Source: Waddliaceae bacterium (GTDB lineage Bacteria > Chlamydiota > Chlamydiia > Chlamydiales > Waddliaceae). From it: 64,000 nt of DNA. The first letter of the stretch is position 1, and every line of letters begins with the position of its first letter. The notes under the pieces are model-generated. The model did not search any database, was not told the origin of the DNA, and saw only the letters and a list, made by a program, of their open reading frames with translations. The position numbers were made by a program, and so were the translations under genes. Location of the stretch: the NCBI GenBank assembly GCA_963724325.1, contig CAVRUH010000007.1:224001-288000 (forward strand). Direction: 5' to 3'. Shown piece after piece: positions 6,161 through 48,825 of this stretch.

Positions 6161-6244
6161 CTTCCTATTTTCTTCCTATCCTTCATATCCTGCCGCTTGC
6201 GATCATGCGTATCCTGTTATTCCCTTCTTATCCTTCGTATCCTG
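6161..6244. repeat. REP-like family A copies: intact unit 6179-6218, plus the left half (6231-6244) of the unit interrupted by LSR element copy 1
   Basis: tccttcatatcctgccgcttgcgatcatgcgtatcctgtt; inverted partner at 8104-8158. Confidence 0.85.
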
Positions 6245-7832
6245 CCCCATCACTACTCAATTGGCAATTTTCATAAAGCATTTTCGGTGATATGCAATGC
6301 ATGATTTTTACCTCGCCTTTGGTTATGATAATTTTTTCAACTATTAAACGCACTAGTTTTTGCTTCTCATTGAATGGCAAATCTGGAGCCGATTTTTTAA
6401 CTCTTTCTAAAATACTTTCAAAAGCATGCTCCCAACCGGATCCTATTTCTTTCATAAGTTTTAAATTTAATCGTTCCTTTTTCTCGTTCTCAAGTTCGCC
6501 TCTTCTTTTTTCTAACCCCTGGGCTCTTTGACTTAGAGAAGTTAAATCTAATAAACCACTTTGATATGCATCTAAAAGTCGCTCTCGTTCTTTTATAAGC
6601 TTTTCTAATTCTTTTCTCATCGAAATTTCCTGCCTCTCGATTTCCTCGATATTTCCGCTTTCCTTTTCTCTTCTTTTAAACTCTTCCTGCAACATAAATG
6701 GATTTTGAAGCATTTGAATTATTTCATTATAGACCAAATCATCGAGCTCATCCTGCTGTATATATCCATTAGAACATTTTGGTATTTTATTATCCGAATG
6801 GCTTCGACAATGATAATAATTTTTACTTATTCCCTTATATCTTCTCATTCTTTTATAAAATTGACAACCACATTCGCCGCACGTGATTAATCCTTGAAGC
6901 AAGGAAGGTTCTTTGGTATTTCTTAAGGCTAATTCTTTATTTTTATTTATATATTCCTGTGCTGTTTCAAAATCACTTTCACTAATTATAATTGGAATAT
7001 TTATCTCGTACCAAGAGTCTTCATTAGTTTTTTTTCGTGGATTTTTTGGCTTCAGCCGTCTTAAGCCTTTATAATGCCTTATTTTATCTATACCCTCATA
7101 CTTTTCTGATTTACCATAGGCTGCAGTGCCTATATAAGCCTTATTTTTTAATATCCCTAAGATGGTTGCTGGAAACCAATAGGAATTTCCTTTTGGGCTT
7201 TTAATTTGGACCTCGCTCAACCTTCGACAAATTCCATTTAATGAAAGCCTCTCATGAACATATAAATAAAATATTTTTCTTACAACATTCGCGTCTGTTT
7301 CAACGATTTCAATCACCGTTTGACGTTCATTTTTTATCCTCTGATAGCCATATGGTAGCTTAGGAAGAATAGCTGGATCTCCGCTTTTTGCTTTATGAAT
7401 AGTACCTCGACGAGATCGATCTAATATTAATGCTCTTTCATATTCAGCAAAAATCCCCTGAAAATGAGTAAACATTATTGCTTCAGGAGTGTCACCTTGA
7501 GGAACATTTCTAATGAAAAGAACCTTCACTCCACATCGTCGAAATTCATCTAACAAAATAAGTTGATGAGGATAATTTCTGGCTAACCTATCTGGTGCAT
7601 AGATCAAAATCGCGTCGACAGACTCTGTTCGTATCAAATCTCGTAAATCATCTAAAGCAGGTCTTTGAAGACTTTGACCACTTATACCGTTATCAAGAAA
7701 AAGCCACGTTTCTGGAATTTGATATCCTTCTTTGAGTCCAAATTCTCGAAGAACCAATTCTTGACTTTCGATCGTTTCATCTTCTTTTTGCTTCTGTGAG
7801 GAGACTCTGGCATATATTGCGGCTTTCTTCAT
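6228..7832 (-). CDS. Large serine recombinase (catalytic domain, recombinase domain, zinc ribbon, coiled coil); last 4 residues and the stop come from flanking DNA
   Basis: AAIYARVSS catalytic Ser motif, DRLARN, CGECG...YYHC...C zinc ribbon, coiled coil; AGGAG RBS before the ATG. Confidence 0.95.
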   Translation of the reverse strand: MKKAAIYARVSSQKQKEDETIESQELVLREFGLKEGYQIPETWLFLDNGISGQSLQRPALDDLRDLIRTESVDAILIYAPDRLARNYPHQLILLDEFRRCGVKVLFIRNVPQGDTPEAIMFTHFQGIFAEYERALILDRSRRGTIHKAKSGDPAILPKLPYGYQRIKNERQTVIEIVETDANVVRKIFYLYVHERLSLNGICRRLSEVQIKSPKGNSYWFPATILGILKNKAYIGTAAYGKSEKYEGIDKIRHYKGLRRLKPKNPRKKTNEDSWYEINIPIIISESDFETAQEYINKNKELALRNTKEPSLLQGLITCGECGCQFYKRMRRYKGISKNYYHCRSHSDNKIPKCSNGYIQQDELDDLVYNEIIQMLQNPFMLQEEFKRREKESGNIEEIERQEISMRKELEKLIKERERLLDAYQSGLLDLTSLSQRAQGLEKRRGELENEKKERLNLKLMKEIGSGWEHAFESILERVKKSAPDLPFNEKQKLVRLIVEKIIITKGEVKIMHCISPKMLYENCQLSSDGAGYEG

Positions 7833-7974
7833 GATGGAGCTCCTGATTGATGGATGACCGAATTGATATTGTGCTGTTGAGCAATATCGCTAAGCCCTTG
7901 ATTAATTTTGCTCTTTGATTCCTCTGAGGGTGATATTCGAGTACAATTTTTTGGACTTTGATGCATTTTGACAA
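7777..7974 (-). CDS. Possible small basic protein (about 65 aa, TTG start) overlapping the LSR start; candidate directionality or accessory factor
   Basis: Open frame LSKCIKVQKIVLEYHPQRNQRAKLIKGLAILL... downstream of a candidate promoter; weak RBS; same frame in copy 2 (34890-35087). Confidence 0.35.
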   Translation of the reverse strand: MSKCIKVQKIVLEYHPQRNQRAKLIKGLAILLNSTISIRSSINQELHHEESRNICQSLLTEAKRR

Positions 7975-8009
7975 TGTTCTGAGCCTTGTTTCGAGAAGAA
8001 TATTTACCG

Positions 8010-8037
8010 ATTGTACTTCTATCAAACATTTTCTCAA
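8010..8037 (-). promoter_or_regulatory. Candidate sigma70-type promoter inside the LSR element
   Basis: Minus strand TTGAGA-16 bp-TACAAT. Confidence 0.4.
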
Positions 8038-8068
8038 AACAAATTTTGCCAATTGAGTATTGATGGGG

Positions 8069-8158
8069 TGCCGCTTGCGATCATGCATATCCTGTTATTC
8101 CCTAGGGAAACAGGATACGCATGATCGCAAGCGGCAGGATATGGAGGATAGGAAGAAA
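8069..8158. repeat. REP-like family A: right half of the interrupted unit plus an intact inverted unit (8109-8148)
   Basis: tgccgcttgcgatcatgcatatcctgtt followed by aacaggatacgcatgatcgcaagcggcaggatatggagga. Confidence 0.85.
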
Positions 8159-28864: not shown

Positions 28865-30325
28865 CTATTTCTGCGATATTCCCTGTGCGAAATGTTGGAT
28901 GAGTTGAGTTAAACTTGTCAATATCGCAGCTGCTGACTGATAAAACTGTTGGAACACGAACAAATACTGCTGTGTCTGCTGTTGCTGTTGGTTATTCAAG
29001 TTTTCGCCAGAAGTTATCGCATTGTTAATTCCCGTCTGTATAGTACCTGCAGCTCCTGTGGCAGCATTTGGAGAATTGCTATAGTTATCCAACAACCAGA
29101 TTTTAACCGCATTTGGCAGTACATTACGTTGGATAGGCACAACTACGAATGATACATTATATGCTGCCGAAATCTGATTCGGAAATAATTTAAGACCATT
29201 AAGTGCAGGGTTTCCTTGTTGAGTTCCATAAAGGTTAGCATAATATAACGCTAAATTATACTGGCTAAACGTTAATGAAGCCGGTGCACCTGAAAGGGCA
29301 CCGGAAATCAAATTGTAAACACTCGATTGTGTCATCGTTGGTCCGGCTGCCGCTGCATTTAATGCTGTATTCATTCCGCTATAAACAACTCTTAATTGAC
29401 CTAGCAGTGACTGAGAGTTACTTAGAGCTCCCACTGAAGTTTGGCCAGCTAATGTTGAAATCTCAAGACGTATTTGGTCGCGTAACTGCAAAAATTGAAC
29501 TACGGCCGGCGTATAGGCACCCGTTGCCGCAAGCGCTGAGGTCATAGATGGGGTCAATTCAGGAGTAATTGCACTAAAGTGTGCTGAAGCAATGCCTTGG
29601 ATCTGTTCCAAGAACAGTGACACACCGCCGATTTGCGACTTAGTCCAGAAGACACCTGCAGCTTTATGCGCACTCAAAGACAATGCAAGACGGCCAGAAA
29701 TACCCGTAATTATGTTCACGGCTGAAGGAAAGGTGTTTTTATTAACAACGGTAATTTGGTTGTGCAAAGTTTGCAATTGATTCAACGTAGTCAACACGCT
29801 TGAAGTAGCACTCAAAGCACTTTGCAATTGACCAAGATTATCGGAAATGATTTCATTTCCAGTATTGACGTATACGAGTTCCACAAGGGCCTGCAACGAC
29901 TGGTTTCCTGCCGTACCTGAATAGTTGGCTCCTGTCAAAGCTGTTCCAGTAACTGAACTCGTCGCAAAGGCTTGGTCCTGCCATGCTTGTAATTGTGCTT
30001 GTGTAACGGTTACTGCACCTGGACCCGAAGGTTGAATGCCGGCTGCTGTAAACGTGGCGTATACCTGACTTAACGCCTGTCCCATCGGCAGGCTCATTTG
30101 CCCTGATGCAGCTAAAGAGTTCAATCCATTAATACTAGCAGAAACATTCGCAGCATCTGCGCTAGTTGGCGTATACGTTCCTCCATTATTGAGAAAGTTA
30201 ATAAACGTACCAATATAAGCTGTGTAACTTGCTGCGGCCGCCGCTGCTGCCACTTCAGGTTGTGCCTGATACTGCACTCCACCGATAGTTACATTAACTA
30301 GGTCGACTGGTGTTGGGGTTGACAT
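28865..30325 (-). CDS. Ala/Thr/Ser/Gln-rich putative T3SS-secreted protein with a C-terminal amphipathic helix
   Basis: 486 aa; N-terminus MSTPTPV resembles the neighbour's MSSPTPV; AGGAGG RBS. Confidence 0.7.
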   Translation of the reverse strand: MSTPTPVDLVNVTIGGVQYQAQPEVAAAAAAASYTAYIGTFINFLNNGGTYTPTSADAANVSASINGLNSLAASGQMSLPMGQALSQVYATFTAAGIQPSGPGAVTVTQAQLQAWQDQAFATSSVTGTALTGANYSGTAGNQSLQALVELVYVNTGNEIISDNLGQLQSALSATSSVLTTLNQLQTLHNQITVVNKNTFPSAVNIITGISGRLALSLSAHKAAGVFWTKSQIGGVSLFLEQIQGIASAHFSAITPELTPSMTSALAATGAYTPAVVQFLQLRDQIRLEISTLAGQTSVGALSNSQSLLGQLRVVYSGMNTALNAAAAGPTMTQSSVYNLISGALSGAPASLTFSQYNLALYYANLYGTQQGNPALNGLKLFPNQISAAYNVSFVVVPIQRNVLPNAVKIWLLDNYSNSPNAATGAAGTIQTGINNAITSGENLNNQQQQQTQQYLFVFQQFYQSAAAILTSLTQLIQHFAQGISQK

Positions 30326-30351
30326 ATATTGCCTCCTATACCTCTATTCTC

Positions 30352-30380
30352 ATTATACATAATTTTTATTTTAATTGCAA
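30352..30380 (-). promoter_or_regulatory. Near-consensus sigma66/sigma70 promoter for the 30325-start gene and downstream T3SS genes
   Basis: Minus strand TTGCAA-17 bp-TATAAT. Confidence 0.7.
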
Positions 30381-30399
30381 CCATGGAACTAACATTTCC

Positions 30400-32787
30400 T
30401 TATACAGGGGAAGAAACTCCCAATGTATCACCCGACATATGAGCTCCCATTGCACCTCGTAAACTACTGGTTGTGTTAATAGCCATATCGCCAATTCCGG
30501 TGCTGATATGCTGAGATATTCCCAAGGGTTGGCTGACTTTAGCTAAATAATTGTTAATTGTATCCTGTTCATTGTTAATATTCAGATCTATGGCATTTTG
30601 TTTTATAGTTGCAATCTGATTCCCAATCTGCTTAGTTGTATCCTGTATCGTATTCAAAATGCTCTGTTTGACCACCTGAGCCTTAACAGGCCCCAAATCT
30701 GCCAAGAGATTGTCTAAATGATCGGAAATTTGTGTATGAACATCCACAGTTTGTGTAGGTCCTGTCTGATTAAGTACTAATTTAGGTGTATTTATTTGAG
30801 CCTGATTTATTGAAAATGCAAGGTCGTTATGGACATTTAAGGAATTCTGTACAGCGCGTTCTAACTGATCCTTTTTAGCGGCCTCATCGACAATTTGCGA
30901 CAGGTTTTTAGTGTCCTGTCCAATCTGATTCACAATAAACTCTTTGATACTTTCGGTAGAGAATAGCGATGCCAGTACCGCAGGGTTGCTTTGAGTCGGC
31001 TCATTTACTGCTGCCGTCGTAACTGCGCTCGTCTCTGGAGCAGCCACTGGATTGGTCGCAGGAGCACCAGCTGGCACTGTTTCTTGTACTTGTGCTTGAG
31101 CTTGAATTTGTGCTTGTGCTTGTGATGAGACTATTAGCTTTTCACTCGGAGTCAATCCTTCAACGCTAGATAACACCTGATTGCTTAAATTTGTGATACC
31201 CAATGATTTCTCTAACAGATTCAAACCTACTCCTAATAGCGCGAGATTCAAATGTGGAGTCACCGCATTAGCTACAGCAGCGATCTGTCCTGTTGACGCA
31301 ACAGTACCTAGGTCCTTTTTCAGCTGGGCATTCGCTACTAATTTTAATGCGTCAGTGTTAACCACGTTGTTAATTTGATGCCCAACAGCCGCTCCAACAA
31401 CAGCAGCGCCTGCCGGACTGTTTGTGGGCACACCCTCGACTTCATTTCCGAGCGTTTGCGCCGCACTAACTCCTGCTTGAACACCAGAACTTTCCAGTGC
31501 CCCAAAAACAGTGAGCTGTAACTTCTTTTTTGCCGGATCAAGTGATCCAAAATCATTAGGTATATTTATACTTGACGTAACAGTAGCTAGATTACCAGTT
31601 GCAGCAAGTAAAGTTGCGTCCGATGATACTGCACCGCCAAGCTGCAATGGGCCAGTCGAGCCCTGCTGTGAAACCTCTGGCTTTTGTTTCTTTTCGACAA
31701 AAGACTTCGGTAAGATTCCCCCCGATTGATTGGGCTTCTGACTGTCCAATAGTGATTTGACATCACTTCGATAATTTGTAGTAAAAATATTAAGCAAAGT
31801 TCCCTGCGCATGAAGTGCTGCTGTTAGATCTAGAAAGTCATAGGACGCAAACACATCTGTGGGCGTGGGAGGACTGCTAAAGGTCGAACCAATGAGGCTT
31901 GATAGTGAACCAACGCTCGCGACGTTGCCATTCTTATCAAGCGAAACAACAGACCCAACTCCAGGCAGCAGCGGTATAGAAGGAATTGACGGCCCCGATC
32001 TTTGGCTGTTAATTTGTGAAAGCGATCCATTACTGCTGTTAATGGTATTTGACAAACTAACATAGTCATTATTTACAATGCTGGTACCATTATTGGATAT
32101 GTTCTGAGCATATGTTAAAGCCTGATTTGCCCCTTGGAGAGCAGCGTAATCACTATTAGCCAAGTTCGTCGCGGCATTAAGTGCATTTAAATTCGCCTGA
32201 GTTCCATTCGTATCATAGGCTGCTTGTGCTGCTACTTGGGCGGCCGCATCAGTATTGTAGGTTGCTTGGGCTGTCGCCTGATTATCTGTGGCGGCTTTAA
32301 GATTAGCAGGTGCATTATTATTGGCAGTGAAGTCTGAAATAAGATTGTTATAAGAACTCGTTACGGATGCTTGTGCATTGTTGAATGTTGCAGGCCAATG
32401 TTGTGAATCCAGAAGCAATTGATTAAGCTGATTCTGAAAATCAGCAAAATTAGACACGAAAGCACTTAATTGACTGGTTGAGAACGAGACATTACCAGCT
32501 GTCATTACCTGTTGGGCTACAGTGATATCGGTTTGACCTTCATTTACAGCTTTTAGGTTTGAAATAAGGGAAATATCCCATGGTGGAAGCTGGGGACTTG
32601 AAGGTGCCGGAAATGAACTGCTGAAAGTTTGCCCGGCATTGCTTATTGTATCTCCCAAACTCACCGGAATAGGCGTTATTAGGGTAAGCTCTTGGTTTGA
32701 TAATGGTACGCCACCAGCCGGTGCATTTACAAGGGGATCGATTCCCATAATTGGACTCCTTGGCAGAGTTTGATCAATGATCTCCAC
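30400..32787 (-). CDS. Large Ala/Asn/Gln/Ser-rich putative T3SS effector (795 aa)
   Basis: GTG start after AGGTGG; Pro/Ser-rich N-terminus, coiled coil; extended -10 TGcTATAAT at 32802-32810. Confidence 0.7.
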   Translation of the reverse strand: MEIIDQTLPRSPIMGIDPLVNAPAGGVPLSNQELTLITPIPVSLGDTISNAGQTFSSSFPAPSSPQLPPWDISLISNLKAVNEGQTDITVAQQVMTAGNVSFSTSQLSAFVSNFADFQNQLNQLLLDSQHWPATFNNAQASVTSSYNNLISDFTANNNAPANLKAATDNQATAQATYNTDAAAQVAAQAAYDTNGTQANLNALNAATNLANSDYAALQGANQALTYAQNISNNGTSIVNNDYVSLSNTINSSNGSLSQINSQRSGPSIPSIPLLPGVGSVVSLDKNGNVASVGSLSSLIGSTFSSPPTPTDVFASYDFLDLTAALHAQGTLLNIFTTNYRSDVKSLLDSQKPNQSGGILPKSFVEKKQKPEVSQQGSTGPLQLGGAVSSDATLLAATGNLATVTSSINIPNDFGSLDPAKKKLQLTVFGALESSGVQAGVSAAQTLGNEVEGVPTNSPAGAAVVGAAVGHQINNVVNTDALKLVANAQLKKDLGTVASTGQIAAVANAVTPHLNLALLGVGLNLLEKSLGITNLSNQVLSSVEGLTPSEKLIVSSQAQAQIQAQAQVQETVPAGAPATNPVAAPETSAVTTAAVNEPTQSNPAVLASLFSTESIKEFIVNQIGQDTKNLSQIVDEAAKKDQLERAVQNSLNVHNDLAFSINQAQINTPKLVLNQTGPTQTVDVHTQISDHLDNLLADLGPVKAQVVKQSILNTIQDTTKQIGNQIATIKQNAIDLNINNEQDTINNYLAKVSQPLGISQHISTGIGDMAINTTSSLRGAMGAHMSGDTLGVSSPV

Positions 32788-32859: not shown

Positions 32860-32999
32860 GCAAGCCCAGAAAAAATAACAGGATATGCCAAGCTGCAAGC
32901 CCAGAAAAAAAACAGTATATGCCAGGTTGCAAGCCCTCAAAAAAATAACAGGATATGCCAGGTTGCAAGCCCAGAAAAAATAACAGGATATGCAGGATC
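32860..32999 (+). repeat. Four tandem 34-36-bp units related to REP family A
   Basis: gcaagccc(ag/tc)a(A)n(t)aacag(g/t)atatgc repeated. Confidence 0.8.
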
Positions 33000-33357
33000 G
33001 CAAGCGGCAGGATATGAAGGATGTAGGCGGAGGATAGGAGGCAGTGGCGTCAACTTAAAGAAAAATCTATAATTTTTGTCTATATAGACAAGAGGTAGGT
33101 TTTGGAAGGCTGAAGGCCGGGCTCTTAATAGCCCAGACCGCAGTGGAGCAAGCGCAAGCGAGCGGAACGGAGGTCTGGGTTGGGTGACAAATAGAACTGC
33201 GAGGGCTGAAAGCCCGATACATCAAATGACGGCTATTAATGAGTCGGGCTTTCAGCCTTCCAAAACCTACCTCTTGTCTATATAGACAAAAATTATAGAT
33301 TTTTCTTTAAGTTGACGCCACTGCCTCCTATCCTCCGCCTACATCCTTCATATCCTG
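32981..33357. repeat. Long REPIN-like hairpin with 134-bp perfect arms; the right arm (33251-33357, resuming at 35184) is interrupted by LSR element copy 2
   Basis: The reverse complement of 32981-33114 matches 33251-33357 joined to 35184-35210. Confidence 0.9.
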
Positions 33358-34945
33358 CCCCATCACTACTCAATTGGCAATTTTCATAAAGCATTTTCGG
33401 TGATATGCAATGCATGATTTTTACCTCGCCTTTGGTTATGATAATTTTTTCAACTATTAAACGCACTAGTTTTTGCTTCTCATTGAATGGCAAATCTGGA
33501 GCCGATTTTTTAACTCTTTCTAAAATACTTTCAAAAGCATGCTCCCAACCGGATCCTATTTCTTTCATAAGTTTTAAATTTAATCGTTCCTTTTTCTCGT
33601 TCTCAAGTTCGCCTCTTCTTTTTTCTAACCCCTGGGCTCTTTGACTTAGAGAAGTTAAATCTAATAAACCACTTTGATATGCATCTAAAAGTCGCTCTCG
33701 TTCTTTTATAAGCTTTTCTAATTCTTTTCTCATCGAAATTTCCTGCCTCTCGATTTCCTCGATATTTCCGCTTTCCTTTTCTCTTCTTTTAAACTCTTCC
33801 TGCAACATAAATGGATTTTGAAGCATTTGAATTATTTCATTATAGACCAAATCATCGAGCTCATCCTGCTGTATATATCCATTAGAACATTTTGGTATTT
33901 TATTATCCGAATGGCTTCGACAATGATAATAATTTTTACTTATTCCCTTATATCTTCTCATTCTTTTATAAAATTGACAACCACATTCGCCGCACGTGAT
34001 TAATCCTTGAAGCAAGGAAGGTTCTTTGGTATTTCTTAAGGCTAATTCTTTATTTTTATTTATATATTCCTGTGCTGTTTCAAAATCACTTTCACTAATT
34101 ATAATTGGAATATTTATCTCGTACCAAGAGTCTTCATTAGTTTTTTTTCGTGGATTTTTTGGCTTCAGCCGTCTTAAGCCTTTATAATGCCTTATTTTAT
34201 CTATACCCTCATACTTTTCTGATTTACCATAGGCTGCAGTGCCTATATAAGCCTTATTTTTTAATATCCCTAAGATGGTTGCTGGAAACCAATAGGAATT
34301 TCCTTTTGGGCTTTTAATTTGGACCTCGCTCAACCTTCGACAAATTCCATTTAATGAAAGCCTCTCATGAACATATAAATAAAATATTTTTCTTACAACA
34401 TTCGCGTCTGTTTCAACGATTTCAATCACCGTTTGACGTTCATTTTTTATCCTCTGATAGCCATATGGTAGCTTAGGAAGAATAGCTGGATCTCCGCTTT
34501 TTGCTTTATGAATAGTACCTCGACGAGATCGATCTAATATTAATGCTCTTTCATATTCAGCAAAAATCCCCTGAAAATGAGTAAACATTATTGCTTCAGG
34601 AGTGTCACCTTGAGGAACATTTCTAATGAAAAGAACCTTCACTCCACATCGTCGAAATTCATCTAACAAAATAAGTTGATGAGGATAATTTCTGGCTAAC
34701 CTATCTGGTGCATAGATCAAAATCGCGTCGACAGACTCTGTTCGTATCAAATCTCGTAAATCATCTAAAGCAGGTCTTTGAAGACTTTGACCACTTATAC
34801 CGTTATCAAGAAAAAGCCACGTTTCTGGAATTTGATATCCTTCTTTGAGTCCAAATTCTCGAAGAACCAATTCTTGACTTTCGATCGTTTCATCTTCTTT
34901 TTGCTTCTGTGAGGAGACTCTGGCATATATTGCGGCTTTCTTCAT
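33293..34945 (-). CDS. Large serine recombinase (550 aa); last 20 residues come from the flanking repeat
   Basis: Same sequence as 6228..7832 through ...SSDGAGYEG, then CRRRIGGSGVNLKKNL. Confidence 0.95.
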   Translation of the reverse strand: MKKAAIYARVSSQKQKEDETIESQELVLREFGLKEGYQIPETWLFLDNGISGQSLQRPALDDLRDLIRTESVDAILIYAPDRLARNYPHQLILLDEFRRCGVKVLFIRNVPQGDTPEAIMFTHFQGIFAEYERALILDRSRRGTIHKAKSGDPAILPKLPYGYQRIKNERQTVIEIVETDANVVRKIFYLYVHERLSLNGICRRLSEVQIKSPKGNSYWFPATILGILKNKAYIGTAAYGKSEKYEGIDKIRHYKGLRRLKPKNPRKKTNEDSWYEINIPIIISESDFETAQEYINKNKELALRNTKEPSLLQGLITCGECGCQFYKRMRRYKGISKNYYHCRSHSDNKIPKCSNGYIQQDELDDLVYNEIIQMLQNPFMLQEEFKRREKESGNIEEIERQEISMRKELEKLIKERERLLDAYQSGLLDLTSLSQRAQGLEKRRGELENEKKERLNLKLMKEIGSGWEHAFESILERVKKSAPDLPFNEKQKLVRLIVEKIIITKGEVKIMHCISPKMLYENCQLSSDGAGYEGCRRRIGGSGVNLKKNL

Positions 34946-35181
34946 GATGGAGCTCCTGATTGATGGATGACCGAATTGATATTGTGCTGTTGAGCAATAT
35001 CGCTAAGCCCTTGATTAATTTTGCTCTTTGATTCCTCTGAGGGTGATATTCGAGTACAATTTTTTGGACTTTGATGCATTTTGACAATGTTCTGAGCCTT
35101 GTTTCGAGAAGAATATTTACCGATTGTACTTCTATCAAACATTTTCTCAAAACAAATTTTGCCAATTGAGTATTGATGGGG
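33358..35181 (-). mobile_element. 1824-bp IS-like large serine recombinase element, copy 2
   Basis: IRs 33358-33380 and 35159-35181; flanking TG at 33356-33357 and 35182-35183; offset exactly 27113 bp from copy 1; encoded protein identical over the element. Confidence 0.92.
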
Positions 35182-35277
35182 TGCCGCTTGCGATCCTGCA
35201 TATCCTGTTATTTTTTTGAGGGCTTGCAACCTGGCATATCCTGTTTTTTTTTAAGGAGGGCAAGTGTTTGGTTGTAC

Positions 35278-37324: not shown

Positions 37325-37674
37325 AATAACAGGATATGAAGGCATACGCATCAACCTAAAATATTTTTTACCACCGAGATCATGGAGAACACAAGAGAGG
37401 TCATTGATATCTTATTATTTCTCTAACAAAAAAACAGGATAGGCAAGATCGCAAGCGGCAGGATATGAATGATAAAAGTAATTGACATCATCTTCCTAAA
37501 ATCCTTCATATCCCATACGCATCAACTTAAAAAAAATTTAACACCGAGTTCACCGAGAAAACAGAGGTAGCAGAGAGAACTATTTTATACTCCATGATCT
37601 CTCTCGTGTTCTCTGGTGTTCTCTGTGGTAAAAGATATTTTAGGTTGATGCGTATGCTTCATATCCTGTTTTCC
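37325..37674. repeat. Composite nested palindromic repeat containing an unoccupied family A unit (about 37434-37472)
   Basis: Outer IR aacaggatatgaaggcatacgcatcaacctaaaatat / atattttaggttgatgcgtatgcttcatatcctgtt; internal gatcgcaagcggcaggatatgaa. Confidence 0.75.
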
Positions 37675-46283: not shown

Positions 46284-46320
46284 ATAGCAAAGCCCTTCAA
46301 TTTTGTAAAGAATCTTTTTT

Positions 46321-46704
46321 CGCCTAGGAAAAAAACAGGATATGCCCCATAATCGCATGCTTAAAAAATAACAGGATATGCAGGATCGCAAAGCGGCAGG
46401 ATAAGAAGGATGGGAGGAAGGGGTAACCTTTTTTCCTATCCTTCTTATCCTGCCGCTTTGCGATCCTGCATATCCTGTTATTTCCTAGGCTGGCGATTAC
46501 CTCGCCATATCCTCGCCTAGGAAAAAAACAGGATATGCCTCTATTATTGCATGCTTAGAAAAATAACAGGATATGCAGGATCGCAAAGCGGCAGGATAAG
46601 AAGGATGGGAGGAAGGGGTAACCTTTTTTCCCATCCTTCTTATCCTGCCGTTTTGCGATCCTGCATATCCTGTTTTTTTTCTAGGCTTGCGATTACCTAG
46701 CCAT
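46321..46704. repeat. Two tandem 193-bp REPIN-like units, each a hairpin of family A variant copies
   Basis: Units begin cgcctaggaaaaaaacaggatatgcc at 46321 and 46514; arms aacaggatatgcaggatcgcaaagcggcaggataagaaggat and its reverse complement. Confidence 0.9.
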
Positions 46705-46710
46705 TTTGTG

Positions 46711-48522
46711 TCATTTTTTTGGAAGAATTTGATGAGACTTACTTATTTTGATTGCAAGGAAAAAATTATTTTTCTCAAGGGCTAGATCCTTGGCTGTTTG
46801 ACTATCCATGTTTTTGATGTCATATTTAGCGCCAGCCTTGATTAAACGTAGAGCAACTGAGTTAATATTGTGTTTAATAGCAACGTGCAACGGCGTTCTT
46901 TTTCTATCATTTCTAAAATTTAATGGATGTTTTAGTTTAATCAATTCATCCACAAGTGCAAGGGATATATTTTCATTTTGCCACTTTCCGATATATACAG
47001 CCTCATGAAGGGGAGTTGGGGTTTTATCGGCAATTCCATTGTTTCCTCCATGTGCCCATGCAAAGCGGAGCATGTCTCTGAGAACTTCCAATCTTTCATT
47101 GGAGATTTCTTTATTTCTATCAGGCTTTCTATGCCTCCTGCGGTTAGAGCCACCTAATTCGATCTTTTTAAAATTAGGTTTGAGAGGAATAAGCCTCGAT
47201 TTAATCTCTTCCCAATGAGATTGGGAAATGCATATTTTCACTAAATAACCGTATATCTTGCTAAGAACGTCAGATGATGACATTTGATCCTTATTGAATA
47301 GCATATCAAATATCTCTTTACGCTGCGCTTCAGGGATGTCAAATATACTGGGAGCAGAACTTATGCCTAGGCCGGGATCGCTTATGACGGGCCTCCGGAA
47401 AAGTTTTTTGAGGGCTTGTCCATATAGTTGCTTCTGGTCGTGTACGGGGTAAGTTGATATTATTGTCTTTAGAAGAAAAAAGAGATTCAAATAATGTGTT
47501 TGTTTCCACAGAGTTAGTCCTTCGCAAATATGCTCAAAGAGGTTCACACCGACATCACCATATTCTTTGTGAAAAATCCACTCAGGATGGCGCTTCAGAA
47601 GTTCGGGAATAATAGTGATAGCATGATCATATTTTGCAAGATCGATTAGAGGGGCAAATATCTTAGTGAAGGCACGTGCAGTCATGAATTTTATGATTGC
47701 TTCGAAGTCTTCTAAATTTGTTTTACCATTTCCGACTGATTTGATAACTTTTTTGATAATATCTGATCTATTAAATCGTAAAAATTCTTCTCTTTCTTTT
47801 GAGTCTAATTTATTAATTATATCAAAAAATAACTCTGAAAATAAATCTGGATCAGATTGCAATATTAATGTTGCAAGTGCATGCCGATTTAGCGGAAATT
47901 CATCGAGCATGCGATGGACCATTTTTTTTCTTGTCACTTGATGTTCGAATGCAAACTCATTAATTTCGGATTCGCAGTTAATGTTTATTCCAAGTGGTGT
48001 TAGTTCTTGCTCCAGATTGCACTTTGCCTCAGGAATATTCTCGGGTTTGGCTCGAGCTTCAATGAGTAATTTAACAGCATCGATACTATTACAATTATTG
48101 ACGAGAAGTGCGTCGATAAGATCTTCAGTTGTATTTCCCAATATTTTTTTTTCGGTAGTACTTAAAAGCCATGAATATAAAATGGGTGGCGGTAATATTT
48201 CAATCGATTCTTTACTTAATTTTGCCAGGTTGTAACCATTGTTGAGGCATAGGAAATTAAGAGTAATGTAACAGATACGGGCTAGGTTATTATCTTCGGT
48301 CTCAATTATCCATTTGACTACTACACCAGTATCGAGAACGGGGATTTGGATTTTTGAAATTTCTTTAGCCCAAAAAAAATGACTGAGTTTGTTGATGCGT
48401 TCGTTTATTAGCCTGCAAAATGGTGCAATACGACCCACATCATTTGCAGTAAGGAATTTTATTGCAAATGAATCGAAGAGGTCTTGCGAAGCAAACGGTC
48501 CAGGATATTCCATTACTATCAT
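46711..48522 (-). CDS. Ankyrin-repeat protein with a possible N-terminal F-box-like motif
   Basis: TPLHEAV, RTPLHVAI, QTAKDLA ankyrin motifs; DLFDSFAIKFLTANDVGRIAPFCR...W is F-box-like. Confidence 0.75.
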   Translation of the reverse strand: MIVMEYPGPFASQDLFDSFAIKFLTANDVGRIAPFCRLINERINKLSHFFWAKEISKIQIPVLDTGVVVKWIIETEDNNLARICYITLNFLCLNNGYNLAKLSKESIEILPPPILYSWLLSTTEKKILGNTTEDLIDALLVNNCNSIDAVKLLIEARAKPENIPEAKCNLEQELTPLGININCESEINEFAFEHQVTRKKMVHRMLDEFPLNRHALATLILQSDPDLFSELFFDIINKLDSKEREEFLRFNRSDIIKKVIKSVGNGKTNLEDFEAIIKFMTARAFTKIFAPLIDLAKYDHAITIIPELLKRHPEWIFHKEYGDVGVNLFEHICEGLTLWKQTHYLNLFFLLKTIISTYPVHDQKQLYGQALKKLFRRPVISDPGLGISSAPSIFDIPEAQRKEIFDMLFNKDQMSSSDVLSKIYGYLVKICISQSHWEEIKSRLIPLKPNFKKIELGGSNRRRHRKPDRNKEISNERLEVLRDMLRFAWAHGGNNGIADKTPTPLHEAVYIGKWQNENISLALVDELIKLKHPLNFRNDRKRTPLHVAIKHNINSVALRLIKAGAKYDIKNMDSQTAKDLALEKNNFFLAIKISKSHQILPKK

Positions 48523-48607
48523 CCTTATATCTTTAAAGCGAACATTGTACCGGTAAGTTACTTATAATCCTACTAAAAAAATTTGTCTGGTCTCAATTTA
48601 TCAACGG

Positions 48608-48810
48608 GATATCCCCCCATAATCGCATGCTTAGAAAAATAACAGGATATGCAGGATCGCAAAGCGGCAGGATAAGAAGGATGGGAAAAAAGGTTACCCC
48701 TTCTTCCCATCCTTCTTATCCTGCCGCTTTGCGATCCTGCATATCCTGTTTTTTTTCTAGGCTGGCGATTACCTCGCCATATCCTGTTATTTTTTAAGCA
48801 TGCGATTATA
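48608..48810. repeat. REPIN-like hairpin unit, family A variant
   Basis: Near-identical to the 46321 unit, with outer IR ataatcgcatgctta / taagcatgcgattat. Confidence 0.9.
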
Positions 48811-48825
48811 GGATTGCTATCATCT

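Follow-up and report, generated by a model that had tools for sequence, protein, structure and literature searches.

Finding two identical 1.8-kb units, each encoding a large serine recombinase (LSR), within one stretch of a Waddliaceae genome raises the question of what kind of mobile element they represent and how an element this small would spread. The window analysed here is the whole 64,000-nucleotide stretch, from contig CAVRUH010000007.1. The initial annotation had described an IS-sized, multi-copy LSR element that occupies one fixed base of a repeat dispersed through intergenic DNA, with attP and attB both readable, and our analysis confirmed this description. Its further statement that the unit carries essentially only an LSR gene was wrong: the 236-bp leader contains a small gene and a second reading frame, both of them conserved. 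The element is real and richer than first described, and we propose that it carries a state-dependent switch that is open to testing.

Alignment bore out the two identical copies of 1824 bp, copy 1 at 6245..8068 and copy 2 at 33358..35181, both on the minus strand. Their ends are inverted repeats matching at 22 of 23 bases. One end (6245..6267), a putative attP half-site, lies within the integrase coding sequence; the other (8046..8068), also a putative half-site, codes for the first residues of the tail described below. As annotated, TG borders the element on both sides (plus strand, 6243..6244 on the left and 8069..8070 on the right of copy 1; 33356-33357 and 35182-35183 for copy 2). The identity shared by the window copies stops 7 bp beyond the left end and 14 bp beyond the right end. 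Mapping across the genome (2.37 Mb, 85% complete) gave seven full copies, five of them identical, and all seven split the same repeat at the same base and in the same orientation, each with different flanks. TG was present at 14 of 14 junctions. The bases common to both junctions amount to 4 bp (TGCC), and from the symmetry of the ends we infer that TG is the crossover. Three copies lie within 5.7 kb on contig C1 of this genome (24026-29732); two of these stand back to back, 70 bp apart, one in each arm of an inverted repeat pair, and share three substitutions, which may reflect either a local hop or gene conversion.

Contigs from all four of the sequencing runs examined (two studies; one run may be the source of the assembly) contained the element; these were four of 19 listed runs, those with small word shares being left out. 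In the run contigs carrying the element, read depth was absent on the first bin of unique flank. One of these contigs, X4, extends into repeat context, with a far end that lies beside none of the seven copies, a weak hint of an eighth site. Since seven copies have different flanks and the run contigs also carry the element, the concern that the second copy might be an assembly artefact is excluded. The joined-end (attP) junction that the initial annotation had suggested looking for was absent from the genome and from the contigs of the four runs, an assembly product that drops rare forms.

The target is a non-coding repeat of about 45 bp. At copy 1 its two halves, the attB arms, lie at 6229..6242 and 8071..8099 (both plus strand), and excising either window copy in silico restores the repeat. 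The empty copies reported earlier were found at 6178..6218 (plus), 8109..8149 (minus, the inverted partner of the split repeat), 32979..33022 (minus) and 37430..37474 (minus), with cores at 6187, 8123, 32996 and 37447, respectively. For six of the seven genome copies, the restored 36-mer occurs exactly as an empty copy elsewhere. The genome contains 123 exact repeat cores and 202 with at most two mismatches; 200 of the 202 lie outside ORFs of 150 or more codons and are grouped into 73 clusters, and for 167 an inverted partner stands no more than 160 bp away. The seven insertions sit in different variants of the repeat. Of 304,847 TG/CA dinucleotides only about 209 are TG sites of the repeat, yet all seven insertions use one of them, which excludes chance targeting. 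A genome of the same genus, not syntenic around the insertion, has 225 repeat cores and no match to the LSR of the element, demonstrating that the repeat exists without it. Of 60 genomes including that one, three others had 10, 5 and 3 cores and the remaining 56 had none. The repeat is thus short, intergenic, high-copy, often in inverted pairs and lineage-restricted, like REP and REPIN sequences. No RAYT or GxxExxY gene was found adjoining it in this 85%-complete genome, where the one weak Y1 transposase match has no core within ~1.5 kb; because no RAYT is flanked by the repeat in a genome of that completeness, we call the target only REP-like. Searches of Rfam returned only hairpin matches far below gathering scores.

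Several other features of the window were observed. Beside copy 2, at 33006-33359, a 116-bp core is enclosed by inverted arms of 119 bp that are 97% complementary, a REPIN- or MITE-like structure. A variant of the repeat with an extra T in its core forms large inverted pairs at 46320-48812, and none of the seven copies lies in this variant. Two long Ala/Ser/Thr/Gln-rich ORFs of 486 and 795 aa occupy the minus strand at 28865-32787.

The LSR gene has no stop within the element. In copy 1 it encodes 534 aa with Resolvase, Recombinase and zinc-ribbon domains (6228..7832, minus strand), running out of the element end and stopping in the host repeat; in copy 2 (33293..34945, minus strand) the tail taken from the flank is a different one, and the product is therefore 550 aa long. 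Overall, flanks add 4-21 residues to give proteins of 533-550 aa. PF00239, PF07508 and PF13408 all matched above cut-off, a coiled coil is present, and the Y7-A-R-V-S11 catalytic motif and four Cys are conserved. The nearest folds and solved relatives were the SPbeta, phiC31, Bxb1 and LI integrases. The protein combines the three domains, the catalytic serine motif and the fold that define LSRs. DUF4368 is absent. In the AF2 model, the last strand spans residues 507-512, with disorder over 514-534. Contigs of ~1.9-2 kb carry many close homologues, as expected for multi-copy elements collapsed in assembly. No relatives were found in viral contigs, and phage matches were distant, the best listed being Wolbachia WO recombinases (~35-38% identity over 60-75% of the protein). 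The same genome encodes a second, distant serine recombinase on contig C11 (65487-66173; 29% identity over 237 aa).

To place the element among its relatives, we drew on 51 genome loci, the best 80 of 407 metagenome loci and a few genome-search loci, which yielded 40 non-redundant elements. We dropped near-duplicates (L023-L028, L031, L032, L034, L036, L039, L076, L084, L088, L091, L134, L143, L146 and L147), loci with no recognisable second end, L002, L030 and L154 (where flanking repeats had been picked instead of ends), L043-L045, L049, L058 and L063 (uncertain or different register) and L116 (a stop at the junction); the ends of L072, L074, L082 and L029 were set by hand. A quick unrooted tree split the 40 elements across one branch, with support of 100, into a chlamydial-type clade (22 elements of 1809-1872 bp) and a clade associated with reverse transcriptase (RT) genes (18 elements of 1996-2260 bp). 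Members keep the same precise ends in unrelated targets. A hairpin of at least 7 bp was present in a flank of 10 of the 21 other chlamydial-type elements, compared to 8 of 400 background windows, and none of this clade had a group II intron RT motif in its flanks. That motif, around PQG..SP, was found in a flank of 13 of 18 RT-clade elements, and the split RT is visible in the annotated record of a Bradyrhizobium plasmid. Most RT-clade elements have an extra gene, with an RHH match in two of the three scanned. The relatives form a wide IS-sized family in which one clade targets hairpin-rich repeats and the other group II intron RT genes.

The core dinucleotide was the same at both ends in 32 of the 40 elements and differed in eight, where collapsed assemblies or core exchange are suspected. 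Close relatives among named loci come mostly from Chlamydiae, which points to an environmental chlamydia as the host, and 4 of 401 sampled genomes of the phylum matched at E <= 1e-100, suggesting that the element is either patchy or lost in short-read assemblies. A second metagenome-assembled genome, G407, has seven copies, inserted in the arms of an inverted repeat that is less abundant (12-16 motif matches) and of which an empty TG site is visible at L171. In phage-type serine integrases, the ZD motif is described as lying 5 bp further inward in attB than in attP (available text of PMC3783163). Comparing attB with attP, we found a flat profile in the chlamydial-type clade (0.19-0.27 at all shifts); the RT clade showed no more than a slight peak (0.325), at shift 5. 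The complete integrase-attP-attB set of the initial annotation is therefore a candidate set.

Further observations concern individual loci. In G407, an IS1634-family transposase lies between the arms of the LSR-targeted inverted repeat (L170:507-2174 and L171:527-2194), and this repeat is thus used by two different mobile elements. At L023 and L034 of the same genome, the ends join both outer repeat arms with unlike cores, as if the repeat interior had been replaced. Five RT-clade elements (L143, L146, L099, L091 and L139) have the same RT half on both sides, owing either to recombination between copies or to chimeric assembly. In a Bdellovibrionales MAG (L053 and L060-L062), a related recombinase lies within a multi-copy unit of ~3.8 kb, an element riding in an intron; the ends bounding this unit are presumably group II intron-like sequence.

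The small gene in the leader, orfS, overlaps the integrase start and encodes 65 aa from an inferred TTG start (7777..7974, minus strand; by copy identity, 34890..35087, minus strand, in copy 2). Its product, a strand followed by a helix, is a candidate recombination directionality factor (RDF). The strand-then-helix order is conserved in both clades, and OrfS itself in 32 of 32 aligned rows. It has no Pfam or NCBIfam family match; we found 202 homologues, and those listed were unnamed or 'hypothetical'. Upstream, a sigma-70-like promoter matches at 10 of 12 positions (8010..8037, minus strand), a consensus match only, as the count of such matches in the region is not above that of shuffles. 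We did not accept a 66-aa upstream ORF as a gene in its own right, because the ATG from which it would start, at 8029, is not conserved.

According to the available text of PMC12286644 and PMC11722253, verified RDFs are predicted to bind at the junction of DBD2 and the coiled coil, mostly by adding a strand. A complex prediction of OrfS with integrase residues 170-531 scored 0.64, while the best of three controls scored 0.02; this mark was reached by 116 of 157 solved pairs and 2 of 215 mismatched pairs, and the pass may partly reflect likeness to LSR-RDF structures already solved (9dxd). The runs shared at least 88% of contacts, with a partner pLDDT of at least 63. In the predicted complex, OrfS residues 10-15 pair with integrase residues 507-513, and the OrfS helix touches 372-387 and 492-500. 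OrfS is therefore predicted to bind the integrase where RDFs bind. Among RDFs predicted by complex modelling, 4 of 11 are described as inactive at the bench (available text of PMC12286644); we consider it probable that OrfS acts as an RDF.

The second addition is an open frame of 79 codons that has no start (7829..8068, minus strand; 34942..35181, minus strand, in copy 2) and would continue the integrase if the element ends were joined. Joining them in silico extends the integrase to 609 aa, ending on its own ATG, which the stop of the tail overlaps; the constant phase of this junction follows partly from how the register was set. None of the 40 curated elements has a stop before the element end, L116 having been dropped beforehand. 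Tails measure 60-79 residues in 18 of the 22 chlamydial-type elements, 20-48 in the other four and 18-35 in the RT clade. The first ~20-30 codons are conserved. The tail has a strand-like I/M-D-x-F-x-F pattern, and it shares some of its sequence with the inverted end and the promoter-like site. The frame stays open past the inverted end in 20 of 22 elements, where shuffling predicts 2.9, and through orfS in 15 of 20, where synonymous shuffling predicts 1.8. Its pN/pS was 0.61 (111 pairs) and 0.25 (27 pairs), against 1.31-1.62 in the other two frames, the pairs behind all these figures being related and non-independent so that they are not to be read as probabilities. Past the inverted end, the third codon positions of the tail frame vary most. 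Comparison of related elements in this way shows selection on the tail at the protein level. Since the frame has no conserved start, the joined form would be its only consistent route to translation. The tail would directly follow the strand predicted to receive OrfS, because 507-512 is the last modelled strand and what follows it is disordered. No natural integrase carrying the tail was found: none of 95 tail matches had an integrase part in front, these being read-throughs from host flanks. Profile comparison (probability 0.1%) led us to reject a copy of OrfS as the origin of the tail.

The copies, ends, target, orfS, stop-less integrase gene and conserved tail frame can be read directly from the DNA, and they suggest a cycle. 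Integrated copies would make a short integrase that ends just past its last β-strand, together with OrfS. OrfS would probably promote attL x attR excision in the manner of RDFs, by adding a strand at 507-512 and clamping the coiled coil at its base. Joining of the ends would place attP inside the gene, and the circle would then make the 609-aa, tail-bearing integrase. We suggest, with slightly less than even confidence, that the tail pairs in cis with the same edge strand, excludes OrfS and favours attP x repeat integration, which would cut the tail off again. The element would gain copies when a circle released from one copy of the chromosome inserted into a different one. An asymmetric core fixes orientation in Bxb1-type integrases, and the asymmetric TG core would do so here. 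Integrase-driven movement through a circle is the step we regard as very likely, and it is likely that this two-gene element spreads by excision and re-integration with direction set by OrfS and the tail; the role of the tail as a competitor of OrfS is finely balanced and tilts a little towards no.

The most serious competing account is that the integrase just requires the tail to be fully active or stable, so that the short form is weak, integration silences the element and no competition with OrfS takes place. Such a role explains the conservation of the tail equally well, the tail and OrfS are unrelated by profile, and the title of one cited reference names a C-terminal toggle element in SPbeta integrase. 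Self-silencing on integration is known for the tyrosine integrase of Myxococcus phage Mx8. We nevertheless consider this account rather unlikely, because the short integrase has a complete LSR fold to its last strand and must excise if the circle is to exist, and because the strand preceding the tail is the very one on which OrfS is predicted to dock. It is improbable to a greater degree that the tail frame goes untranslated and is a by-product of constraints on the DNA imposed by the inverted end, the promoter and the orfS overlap. Its first eight codons are indeed the inverted end, a promoter-like site falls in codons 11-20, and the homologues included no tail-bearing protein. Past the inverted end, however, it is only in the tail frame that pN/pS falls below 1, and variation is greatest at third positions. 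In RT-clade elements the frame terminates at a TTGACA/GTGACA-like box, which keeps tail and promoter apart in that clade.

Two further accounts concern the recombination itself. The enzyme could be an RDF-free transposase resembling TnpX/TndX or Ccr, with little directionality and recognition of hairpins or a loose motif, leaving OrfS as an accessory protein or regulator. The missing shifted ZD motif in the chlamydial-type clade, the variation of core dinucleotides across the family and the excess of flanking hairpins over background speak for this, as does the activity of SCCmec LSRs with no known RDF (available text of PMC12286644). Against it stand the absence of DUF4368, typical of the TnpX/TndX clade, scores far below the Ccr cut-offs, a strongly palindromic attP, the predicted position of OrfS at the RDF site and strict targeting of a single base in a single orientation, and we judge it improbable. 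Alternatively, a single entry into the repeat could have been followed by passive multiplication through duplication, gene conversion or the repeat's own mobiliser, with the recombinase uninvolved. The repeats do lie in tandem clusters, the back-to-back C1 copies share their substitutions, and the circle junction was not found in the genome or the contigs of the four runs; some RT-clade copies are carried within group II introns, so that passive spread applies there in part. Passive multiplication is very improbable as the general explanation, because identity between copies stops 7 and 14 bp from the ends, the copies occupy different repeat variants and family members have the same precise ends in unrelated targets. 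We retain excision and re-integration by the element's own integrase as the preferred reading.

The annotation's claim that this is not a described class stood in part. No account of the family was found in the literature searched, a body of text lying outside subscription papers, bioRxiv supplements and ISfinder, but use of a dispersed repeat by an LSR has a precedent in phiRv1. The target of phiRv1 is a long coding repeat of a few copies. Its LSR, Rv1586c, uses an attB in the REP13E12 repeat together with a small RDF (available text of PMC9317374, PMC1931498 and PMC1470463). Repeat targeting alone is therefore not new, and the likeness extends to the RDF, which phiRv1 has and for which our element has a candidate. 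However, phiRv1 carries phage genes, while the element is 1.8 kb long with two genes and seven copies, lacks a prophage gene set, targets a non-coding repeat of ~45 bp with ~200 copies and has its att site inside the integrase gene. With the integrases of SPbeta (SprA, with its RDF SprB), phiC31, Bxb1 and A118 (LI) it shares domain order, fold, a 2-bp core within a palindromic attP and the DBD2/coiled-coil junction as the predicted docking site of a partner; the core is present at both junctions, as in phage-type att sites. It differs from them in having no phage, multiple copies, a stop-less gene across att, no evident ZD shift in the target and an OrfS that belongs to no family.

Like our element, multi-targeting LSRs and the TndX/TnpX transposases use one LSR at many sites in a genome, and Tn4451 and Tn5397 move by a circle, as we propose here. 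Our element, which uses one exact base of one repeat (7 of 7) and lacks DUF4368, falls outside this group. Multi-targeting LSRs are described by Durrant et al. as having diverse target genes and relaxed motifs, often with DUF4368 (available text of PMC10083194), and the eight text supplements of that paper contain no mention of group II intron/RT, intergenic, Chlamyd or repetitive terms. The extra C-terminal strands modelled for SCCmec Ccr could block the RDF site (available text of PMC12286644). The Ccr extension is permanent, whereas the tail of our element would exist only in the circle. Phage Mx8 and the archaeal SSV1 and pTN3 have attP in their own integrase gene, and integration rewrites the C-terminus. 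Those are tyrosine recombinases of viruses and plasmids, whereas here a serine integrase would gain a conserved tail beside the predicted RDF site. The REP-targeting IS1397, IS621 and ISPpu9/10 are likewise IS-sized and multi-copy and sit at a fixed point of an intergenic repeat, but they and IS607 use other enzymes, namely DDE or DEDD transposases or the small IS607 serine recombinase. IS607-family elements have a small serine recombinase with an N-terminal HTH, usually with TnpB; the 534-aa LSR scored 37 bits against a cut-off of 110 for that family, and the element has no TnpB-sized ORF. The element works like a phage-type serine integrase module and lies outside the phiRv1, TndX/TnpX, Ccr and IS607 groups.

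Taken as a whole, the element may belong to an undescribed, widespread class of IS-sized serine-integrase elements that parasitises repeated DNA, both intergenic repeats and group II intron RT genes, and senses its own state through a tail plugging the RDF site, so that the enzyme made from the circle would only integrate while that made from the integrated copy would respond to the RDF; we hold this combined reading tentatively, as somewhat less probable than its negation. If true, it would extend the small mobile elements landing in repeats by a serine-integrase branch, and it would offer, naturally and in less than 2 kb, one enzyme with and without a tail plus a candidate RDF. Whether C-terminal LSR strands block the RDF site and alter directionality, stated as an open question in the available text of PMC12286644, would thereby become testable. 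With dozens of homologues, readable attP and attB, varied cores and different targets, the family also provides candidate tools.
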